A stretch of DNA of 64,000 bases. Origin: Escherichia phage Pu-Krd-SF3. The notes under the pieces are model-generated. The model was not told where the DNA came from. It saw nothing but the letters and a program-made list of their open reading frames with translations, and made no database searches. Numbering within the stretch: position 1 is the first letter of the stretch; the number at the start of each line of letters is the position of its first letter. A program made the translations under genes and the position numbers. This document shows, piece by piece, positions 42,441-42,803 of the stretch. The stretch lies in sequence record PQ249397. The stretch is one strand, 5' to 3'.

Positions 42441-42803
42441 ATGAAAGCATATCAAATTCTTGAAGGCACACATAAAGGTACTATTTATTTTGAAGACGGT
42501 ATTCAAGCACGAATTATTGTCTCTAAAACCTTTAAAGAGGACTCTTTTGTAGACCCAGAAATTTTCTACGGTTTACATGCCCGTGAAATTGAAATTGAAA
42601 CACAACCTACAGTTAAAATTGAAGGTGGTCAACACCTGAACGTAAACGTTCTGCGTCGTGAAACTCTGGAAGATGCAGTTAAGCATCCGGAAAAATATCC
42701 GCAGCTGACCATCCGTGTATCCGGTTATGCAGTTCGCTTTAACTCTCTGACTCCGGAACAGCAGCGCGACGTTATCGCTCGTACCTTTACCGAGAGTCTG
42801 TAA
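42441..42803 (+). CDS. Autonomous glycyl radical cofactor (GrcA/YfiD-like)
   Basis: ORF track 42429-42803; C-terminus [59 protein letters not shown] is the glycyl-radical motif of GrcA/pyruvate formate-lyase. Confidence 0.7.

Follow-up and report, generated by a model that had tools for sequence, protein, structure and literature searches.

Why does one gene of a T-even phage read like phage DNA along its first half and like the chromosome of Escherichia coli along its second? Phages of the T-even group serve as the standard example of a lytic phage: infection destroys the DNA of the host, with which their own genomes have practically no sequence in common. The gene in question is vs.6, which encodes a protein of 120 amino acids in the T-even phage Escherichia phage Pu-Krd-SF3. 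We analyzed a stretch of 64,000 nucleotides of this phage (sequence record PQ249397), here called the window. A preliminary description, made from the letters alone, had placed a GrcA-like glycyl-radical cofactor gene at positions 42441 to 42803 and suggested that its 3' half had recombined with host grcA (yfiD). The open reading frame (ORF) is real and its coordinates are correct: it starts with ATG at 42441 and ends with TAA at 42803. The best explanation, in which we have high confidence, is that vs.6 is a spare-part gene whose radical domain was overwritten from host grcA, more than once.

The change in composition lies inside the gene. Codons 1 to 59 have a GC content of 0.333 (0.186 at third codon positions) and codons 60 to 120 a GC content of 0.497 (third positions, 0.443), compared with 0.357 for the whole window. 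In sliding 120-nucleotide segments, GC across vs.6 goes from 0.30-0.33 to 0.51. Every leucine codon in the 3' half is CTG (6/6), every arginine codon CGT or CGC (6/6), and every proline codon CCG (3/3), or 15/15 together. The same codons account for 630/2846 (22%) when all window ORFs 100 amino acids or longer are counted (Fisher's test against the 3' half, P = 1.7e-10) and for 1/6 in the 5' half of vs.6 (P = 3e-4). The preliminary description had noticed both the GC-rich 3' half and its host-like ctg, cgt, and ccg codons, and both observations were borne out. It had the shift begin at 42633; the shift itself is there, but the switch occurs at 42618/42619, 14 nucleotides further upstream. A search for promoters or terminators that could account for the boundary gave nothing above shuffled expectation. 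The gene is divided as follows.

42441..42803, plus strand: vs.6 (ortholog of T4 Y06I), ORF of 120 amino acids, stand-alone glycyl-radical cofactor gene
42441..42618, plus strand: phage-type 5' part (gene positions 1-178), AT-rich, an old, diverged homolog of the GrcA N terminus
42619..42790, plus strand: tract read as host derived (gene positions 179-350), 172 nucleotides identical to E. coli grcA
42714..42734, plus strand: RVSGYAV glycyl-radical motif, residues 92-98, read directly from the sequence
42723-42725, plus strand: codon of the radical glycine G95, aligned to GrcA (PDB 6OWR) and to PflB 697-759
42791..42803, plus strand: phage-type 3' end (gene positions 351-363), holding the 3' junction, just upstream of the vs.5 start

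The tract encodes the part of the glycyl-radical domain that runs from EGGQHLNV to ARTF. In pairwise alignment it is identical to grcA of E. coli FDAARGOS_497 at 172/172 positions. When it is extended to the end of the gene (gene positions 179-363, 185 nucleotides), the blastn identity to E. coli grcA is 98.4%, with a match in all 5,426 of the 5,426 complete E. coli genomes that made up our reference set. Upstream of position 179, vs.6 and E. coli grcA share about 45% nucleotide identity. The finding that would have spoken against recombination with grcA/yfiD, an identity no higher in the 3' half than in the 5' half, was thus not what we obtained. The tract's GC content of 0.494 places it in the top 0.7% of all 172-nucleotide segments of the window; the only other regions equally rich in GC are the tRNA cluster and a stretch of a gp12-like gene.

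Both ends of the tract can be located closely. A maximum chi-square test on the triplet of the window, E. coli, and the outgroup phage Invicta found 27 consecutive host-like informative sites at gene positions 180-342, flanked by phage-like sites at 177 and 354, and the breakpoint score was reached by 0/1000 permutations. The breakpoint mapping thus supports the recombination as proposed, with breakpoints at 178/179 and 350-354 and near-identity at synonymous sites confined between them. At the 3' end, three synonymous mismatches (351, 354, and 357) distinguish the phage codons ACC GAG AGT from the E. coli codons ACT GAA AGC. The last 13 nucleotides of vs.6 lie in the region ACC GAG AGT CTG TAA, and GAG AGT is common to the Pseudotevenvirus-type copies (IMG/VR loci L095-L101 and Invicta). 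This is probably the ancestral phage state. Since GAG AGT is shared with outgroup phages that have no host tract, we place the 3' junction within those 13 nucleotides.

The donor can be narrowed to a genus. When grcA genes from 80 other species were ranked together with that of E. coli, identity fell from E. coli (98.4%) and Escherichia sp. MOD1-EC7003 (97.8%) to Trabulsiella and Citrobacter (91%) and on down to 74%. This gradient by genus points to Escherichia specifically. We rejected pflB or tdcE as the donor, with pflB (H159) at about 80% nucleotide identity to the tract. In a megablast search of the whole window, the vs.6 tract was the only stretch of the 64 kb that matched all 5,426 genomes. 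The same search against E. coli genomes found no other host-derived DNA besides a tRNA-Tyr-like plasmid match and one 54-nucleotide hit. We read the tract as a literal copy of E. coli grcA made by homologous gene conversion and not as codon adaptation.

The two minor matches are described here for completeness. The tRNA-Tyr gene (33137-33223) is about 92% identical to tRNA-Tyr genes on some E. coli plasmids. It belongs to a tRNA cluster (window 32555-34015) of nine genes: Gln, Leu, Gly, Pro, Ser, Thr, Met/Ile(CAT), Tyr, and Arg. T4 has eight tRNA genes and, to our knowledge, none for tRNA-Tyr. The 54-nucleotide megablast match (50938-50991, 94.5%) falls on two sites without annotation, both in the one E. 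coli genome BE104; megablast found no other E. coli match in 50001-64000.

Phages that carry the same peptide on different DNA provide the control for protein constraint. In the Pseudotevenvirus-type copies (L095-L097 and Invicta), the C-terminal 60 amino acids are identical to those of E. coli GrcA, yet the DNA is only 84% identical and the longest exact run shared with any host is at most 20 nucleotides. Protein constraint and codon adaptation were therefore ruled out as the cause of the tract. The T5-like, RaK2-like, Aeromonas-phage-like, and other T4-like copies have 73-85% nucleotide identity to any bacterial grcA (T5-like copies alone, 73-78%). A nonhost version of the segment (73-85%) has been kept in Pseudotevenvirus, CC31-like, KP15-like, ECD7, T5-like, and RaK2-like copies. 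For the IMG/VR loci, the labels CC31, PG7, RB43, KP15, RaK2, and T5 are tentative, while a search confirmed that L109 is Klebsiella phage KPV15 (Jiaodavirus) and likewise confirmed the name ECD7.

Genes like grcA and vs.6 are widespread in phages. Matches occur in 1,514 phage records, including T5-like genomes of ~110-120 kb, jumbo phages of ~345-357 kb (RaK2/K64-1 type), and Aeromonas-phage-like genomes. In Tevenvirinae, about 750 records matched. The radical domain is conserved throughout, and the N-terminal halves are very different. Two metagenomic phage contigs of IMG/VR (L117 and L119) have an in-frame stop (...ARCIC*VNGKY...) in an otherwise intact grcA-like ORF.

Among T-even phages, the host-like segment is found far beyond the window. 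A 3' segment with 95% or more identity to E. coli grcA occurs in 636 phage records. When Tequatrovirus is compared with Mosigvirus, identity amounts to 66-76% for the genes on either side, 89-90% for the 5' half of vs.6, and 96.5-98.8% for the tract; within Tequatrovirus, the 5' part is 97-98% identical. Site 204 (A/T) is polymorphic in E. coli, and the phages differ there too: the window and Shfl2 have 204A, while T2 and most others have 204T. In about two-fifths of the E. coli genomes, grcA matches the T2 tract at 100%. Killian carries 285A and 336T, both of them variants of the LH50-c allele, together with six private changes, and APCEc01 has 282T, as does the MOD1-EC7003 allele.

The 3' end of the tract is a mosaic among T-even phages. 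At positions 351/354/357/358/360, the window reads C-G-T-C-G, Shfl2 reads T-G-C-C-G, T4 reads T-A-T-T-G, and Mosigvirus reads T-G-T-C-A. Taken together, the different alleles, the mosaic 3' end, and a tract that is more alike than its flanks suggest that several conversions took place. We consider repeated host-to-phage conversion from different E. coli grcA alleles likely, although not proven.

A tract of another host type was found in Klebsiella phages. For this comparison, grcA alleles of Klebsiella (six, with L185 as the K. pneumoniae reference), Salmonella, and Cronobacter were fetched, and differences were counted over 158 nucleotides (gene positions 181-338). The Jiaodavirus copies (KPV15, Roth80, FRZ284, KP17, and 311F) show 1-8 differences from K. 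pneumoniae grcA and 20-23 from E. coli. The T-even and Mosigvirus copies show 18-20 differences from the K. pneumoniae reference, 18-23 across all six Klebsiella alleles, and 0-2 from E. coli. In this reciprocal matrix of Escherichia and Klebsiella against T-even phages and Jiaodavirus, each group matches its own host genus better. The longest exact run is 140 nucleotides between KPV15 and K. pneumoniae grcA and 172 nucleotides between the window and E. coli grcA.

The Klebsiella signal extends to the protein. Jiaodavirus copies encode the Klebsiella-specific LLDAVEH, and Roth80 encodes SLTSEQQ, the form of two K. variicola-type alleles (L172 and L173), where K. pneumoniae alleles have SLTPEQQ. 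The residues that set the Klebsiella-type tract apart from the E. coli type are E76L and K80E, with or without P105S. The 5' junction lies at the same place as in T-even phages (...AAAAT|TGAAGG). Tract identity between T-even phages and Jiaodavirus is 85.5-88.4%, compared with 86.6% between E. coli and Klebsiella grcA, and the 5' halves of vs.6 are 71-73% identical. These patterns indicate that the Jiaodavirus tract is a second, independent host-specific case, of Klebsiella pneumoniae type. Two further loci (L100 and L101, tentatively KP15-like Klebsiella Slopekvirus) encode LLDAVEH on DNA that is only ~81% identical to Klebsiella grcA; their 3' half may go back to an earlier capture, followed by drift. 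In KPV15 (L109, ~1500-1860), the vs.6 frame is broken after ...DAETF by an apparent 1-nucleotide indel relative to other Jiaodavirus, which could be a sequencing error or mark a pseudogene.

The identity of vs.6 itself rests on its position and its similarity to T4. Nucleotide identity is 100% to Escherichia phage Pu-Krd-SF4, 97-98% to T2, and 97-99% to T4, and the order vs.8-vs.7-vs.6-vs.5-vs.4-vs.3-regB is the same in the window and in T4, where vs.6 is annotated as "autonomous glycyl radical cofactor GrcA." Within the vs.8-regB block, vs.7 precedes the gene and vs.5 follows it so closely that the vs.5 start shares bases with the vs.6 stop codon (TAATG). Because of the shared synteny and the 97-99% identity, we regard vs.6 as orthologous to T4 vs.6/Y06I, which is known to act as a stand-alone glycyl-radical cofactor. 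The preliminary description had called Y06I a T4 homologue, which is correct as to the relationship and an understatement as to its degree: vs.6 is the ortholog of Y06I itself. Its neighbors are listed below; coordinates of vs.8 and vs.7 come from the identical Pu-Krd-SF4 annotation, and their order is as in T4.

41564-42106, plus strand: vs.8
42103-42432, plus strand: vs.7
42803-43024, plus strand: vs.5, downstream neighbor
43017-43283, plus strand: vs.4, downstream neighbor
43283-43561, plus strand: vs.3, downstream neighbor
43621-44082, plus strand: regB, downstream neighbor

The genes vs.8 and vs.7 form the upstream part (41564..42432) of the same tightly packed block, and a Pfam search of the two gave no significant family. 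Further upstream, the order at positions 39243-42106 is e, a 98-amino-acid internal-head-protein-like ORF, denV, ipII-like, ipIII, and vs.8; the T4 counterpart order is e, ipIII, ipII, denV, and vs.8. The region 700-1500 nucleotides upstream of vs.6 aligns to T4, T2, and others at only ~48%. Two public records deserve a remark. In T2 record AP018813.1 (L164), vs.6 is labeled "tail sheath monomer," and its neighbors likewise bear unrelated structural names. Av-05 (NC_025830.1, L168) is filed in Vequintavirinae (120,938 bp), yet its vs.6 locus is Mosigvirus-like.

At the protein level, vs.6 has a single Pfam match, to Gly_radical (PF01228), at residues 60-101 (E = 2.2e-18). The protein tail, read from the ORF translation, is ...[29 protein letters not shown]. 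Alignment to the E. coli GrcA structure (6OWR) gives E = 4.6e-42, and residues 60-120 are identical to GrcA residues 67-127 at 61/61 positions; the radical domain is also strongly similar to PflB 697-759 (E = 4.8e-26). Following established knowledge of pyruvate formate-lyase (PFL) and GrcA, we take G95 of vs.6 to be equivalent to GrcA G102 and PflB G734. With TIGR04365 and IPR011140 as the family reference, vs.6 has the architecture of GrcA/YfiD, a small stand-alone protein (about 14 kDa class) consisting essentially of one glycyl-radical domain, and it has the family's PFL-type RVSGYAV motif and conserved C-terminal domain. The N-terminal half is 36% identical to GrcA residues 28-66 over 39 amino acids (pairwise E = 4e-6). 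This old but recognizable homology argues that vs.6 as a whole is an ancient phage grcA homolog rather than a recent fusion.

The gene, its family, and its biochemical activity were already known. An early comparative study had already pointed out that vs.6 matches Gly_radical and is conserved in all six T4-like genomes that it examined (PMC1524935). PMC8683613, citing Wagner et al. 2001, names T4 Y06I and E. coli YfiD as the only two validated spare-part proteins and states that the PFL activase (PFL-AE) installs a glycyl radical on both and that they restore the activity of O2-cleaved PFL. If vs.6 behaves like its T4 ortholog Y06I, the host activase PflA would put a glycyl radical on the vs.6 protein, which would then replace the C-terminal piece of host PFL lost to oxygen cleavage. 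Fermentative metabolism could thereby continue during infection despite oxygen exposure. The phage presumably needs a copy of its own because it shuts off host transcription, so that host grcA cannot be induced. The host-derived tract leaves this known biochemical function unchanged.

Several observations weigh against the view that vs.6 is a GrcA-type spare part converted repeatedly from its host. The protein misses the NCBIfam TIGR04365 equivalog cutoff (154.6 versus 170 bits), because its N-terminal half has diverged. At the 5' junction, the sequence just before position 179 cannot be aligned between phage and host, so the true crossover must lie inside the first identical bases or have proceeded via microhomology. 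The recombination route is a deduction from the sequences. The evidence for repeat events consists of few polymorphic sites, and the host alleles were picked post hoc; choosing the best allele among thousands of genomes carries a multiple-testing caveat. Parallel mutation at site 204 is conceivable as well. Among all phages compared, a Salmonella-type tract was absent (best identity, 91.9%). The Cronobacter phage Invicta has no host-like tract (44/200 sites differ from Cronobacter grcA), nor does E. coli phage ECD7, and the CC31-like L090, tentatively an Enterobacter phage, is at most 83% identical to any of 86 bacterial alleles, Enterobacter included. The E. coli allele persists even in Tequatroviruses whose isolation host was Yersinia, Serratia, or Citrobacter. 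As judged from these comparisons, host tracking is not general.

Could a single early capture account for the pattern? In such a history, the tract was acquired once in an ancestor of Tequatrovirus and Mosigvirus and once in Jiaodavirus, and all later shuffling was between phages only; we regard it as possible but unlikely. All T-even and Mosigvirus copies do share the 5' junction (A at 178) and mostly the 3' GAG AGT, and APCEc01, SA35RD, and Killian have 4-8 private differences, as drifting inherited tracts would. The 5' half, which between both genera is 85-97% identical per 60 nucleotides and thus above the flanks, fits exchange of the whole gene between phages. However, a tract inherited since the two genera split should show divergence no lower than that of the 5' half (10-11%), and the observed divergence is 1-3%. 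The window and Shfl2 (204A) on the one hand and T2 and others (204T) on the other match different living E. coli alleles at 172/172, Killian bears both linked variants of a third allele, and the extent of the tract at its 3' side varies between phages. It is very improbable that an old acquisition was made host-like by selection on the nucleotides themselves, for host-optimal codons or an mRNA feature. grcA is strongly codon biased, with E. coli 87-91% identical at the nucleotide level to Salmonella and Klebsiella in the segment, but other phages encode the same peptide at only 84% DNA identity, the change is a step at one position and not a gradient, and such selection cannot yield species- or allele-specific synonymous variants or exact runs of 140-172 nucleotides. 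That the host-identical DNA results from host reads joined into a phage contig we consider practically negligible. The concern is generic to any host-identical DNA in a phage genome, with nothing specific to this one, while 636 independent phage records show these junctions (at least 95% identity), including the reference T4, T2, and RB phages, and the reading frame is continuous with phage-type sequence on both sides of the tract.

The direction of transfer and the partner of the protein also had to be considered. Copying of the E. coli and Klebsiella grcA 3' halves from phage is highly unlikely. Two-way exchange has been reported for cyanophage psbA (PMC1484495), and the single shared single-nucleotide polymorphisms (204, 285, and 336) would fit either direction, but the composition of the tract is host-like (GC, 0.49-0.58, versus 0.36 for the phage). 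Moreover, grcA is present in 5,426/5,426 E. coli genomes at a fixed ung-grcA-eamB locus, its identity declines with bacterial relatedness over at least 80 species, and between E. coli and Klebsiella the two halves of the host gene differ to the same extent (identity, 86.9% for the 5' half and 86.6% for the 3' half). The preliminary description had linked the gene to the anaerobic ribonucleotide reductase NrdD of the phage. The same window does encode nrdD (60676-62493) and the activase nrdG (62490-62960), and NrdD is also cleaved by oxygen at its radical glycine. An early comparative paper guessed at a role of vs.6 in nucleotide metabolism (PMC1524935). We nevertheless find it improbable that vs.6 is a spare part for NrdD, and this link did not hold: vs.6 has no sequence similarity to the window NrdD (BLASTP E = 5.7), its motif is the PFL-type RVSGYAV and not RRTCGYLG, its domain matches GrcA at 61/61 positions and is closest to PflB 697-759, and the partners shown for Y06I by experiment (PMC8683613) are PFL and PFL-AE.

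We therefore return to overwriting of the radical domain from host grcA as the favored origin. In the scheme that we propose, an old, diverged phage grcA homolog had its radical-domain DNA replaced by gene conversion from the host chromosome, probably when the recombination system of the phage carried out recombinational repair or strand invasion on a template of host DNA fragments. The patch ends, on either side, where homology between phage and host runs out. Both junctions lie at the edges of the radical domain, we infer, because only that conserved domain is homologous enough. Once installed, 172-185 nucleotides of perfect homology would ease further exchange. GAG at codon 118 may have been kept because GAGAG lies 9-13 nucleotides upstream of the overlapping vs.5 start; the idea is weak, since T4 has GAA. 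The adaptive benefit, if any, might be to match two or three host-specific residues after a host switch.

A bolder version of this scheme is that the radical-domain half is continually recopied from the current host enterobacterium, which would keep the spare part matched to PflB and PflA. We offer it tentatively and incline slightly against it. If it were true, each phage genome would hold a readable record of its recent natural host, and vs.6 would be the one place where strictly lytic T-even phages swap DNA with the host chromosome at a measurable rate. A stretch of 172 to 185 nucleotides copied from a host gene and present in over 630 sequenced phages could in any case serve as a clean natural marker of gene flow from host to lytic phage. 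The tract is also a possible indicator of the recent natural host, as with the E. coli allele in Tequatroviruses whose isolation host was Yersinia or Serratia. What was converted coincides exactly with the domain that docks into host enzymes, which opens the question of adaptive conversion after a host switch.

Comparison with known systems places vs.6 in context. The closest relative, T4 vs.6/Y06I, occupies the same vs.8-regB position and has the same host-derived tract (5' part, 97.2%; tract, 98.8% nucleotide identity), and its protein differs from the window copy at 2 amino acids. The window copy has 204A and no tract differences from E. coli, while T4 has 204T and a private G218A (R72H); the last 13 nucleotides, which are mosaic, differ as well. 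E. coli GrcA (YfiD; 6OWR, TIGR04365) is likewise a small stand-alone glycyl-radical protein with a recognizably homologous N-terminal half, but that half is ~36% identical in the window protein and 7 residues shorter there, and the phage gene lies in an AT-rich block of a lytic phage and not at the ung-grcA locus. PflB 697-759, the piece replaced by the spare part, has the same fold and the same [13 protein letters not shown] motif; at ~80% nucleotide identity to the tract, however, it is set apart from grcA, to which we attribute the tract.

The pattern itself is of a known type. Zeidner and coworkers reportedly described host-phage intragenic recombination in cyanophage psbA and psbD in 2005. 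A later study of the same genes found host-phage intragenic recombination, patchy %G+C, and phage copies that cluster by host (Sullivan 2006, PMC1484495). In the searchable literature, we found no prior description of a host-allele mosaic in vs.6/grcA; an earlier remark in Miller et al. 2003 or Bowman et al. 2019 is possible. The host-allele patch of vs.6 thus resembles that of cyanophage psbA and is apparently undescribed for vs.6/grcA. In both systems, a T4-like phage carries a host-derived metabolic gene whose %G+C is patchy because of segments from host alleles. Unlike the cyanophage case, the vs.6 patch is single, sharply bounded (158-185 nucleotides), and 100% identical to living host alleles; it occurs in classical enteric T-even phages and covers only the domain that docks into host enzymes, and its transfer appears clearly to have run from host to phage.

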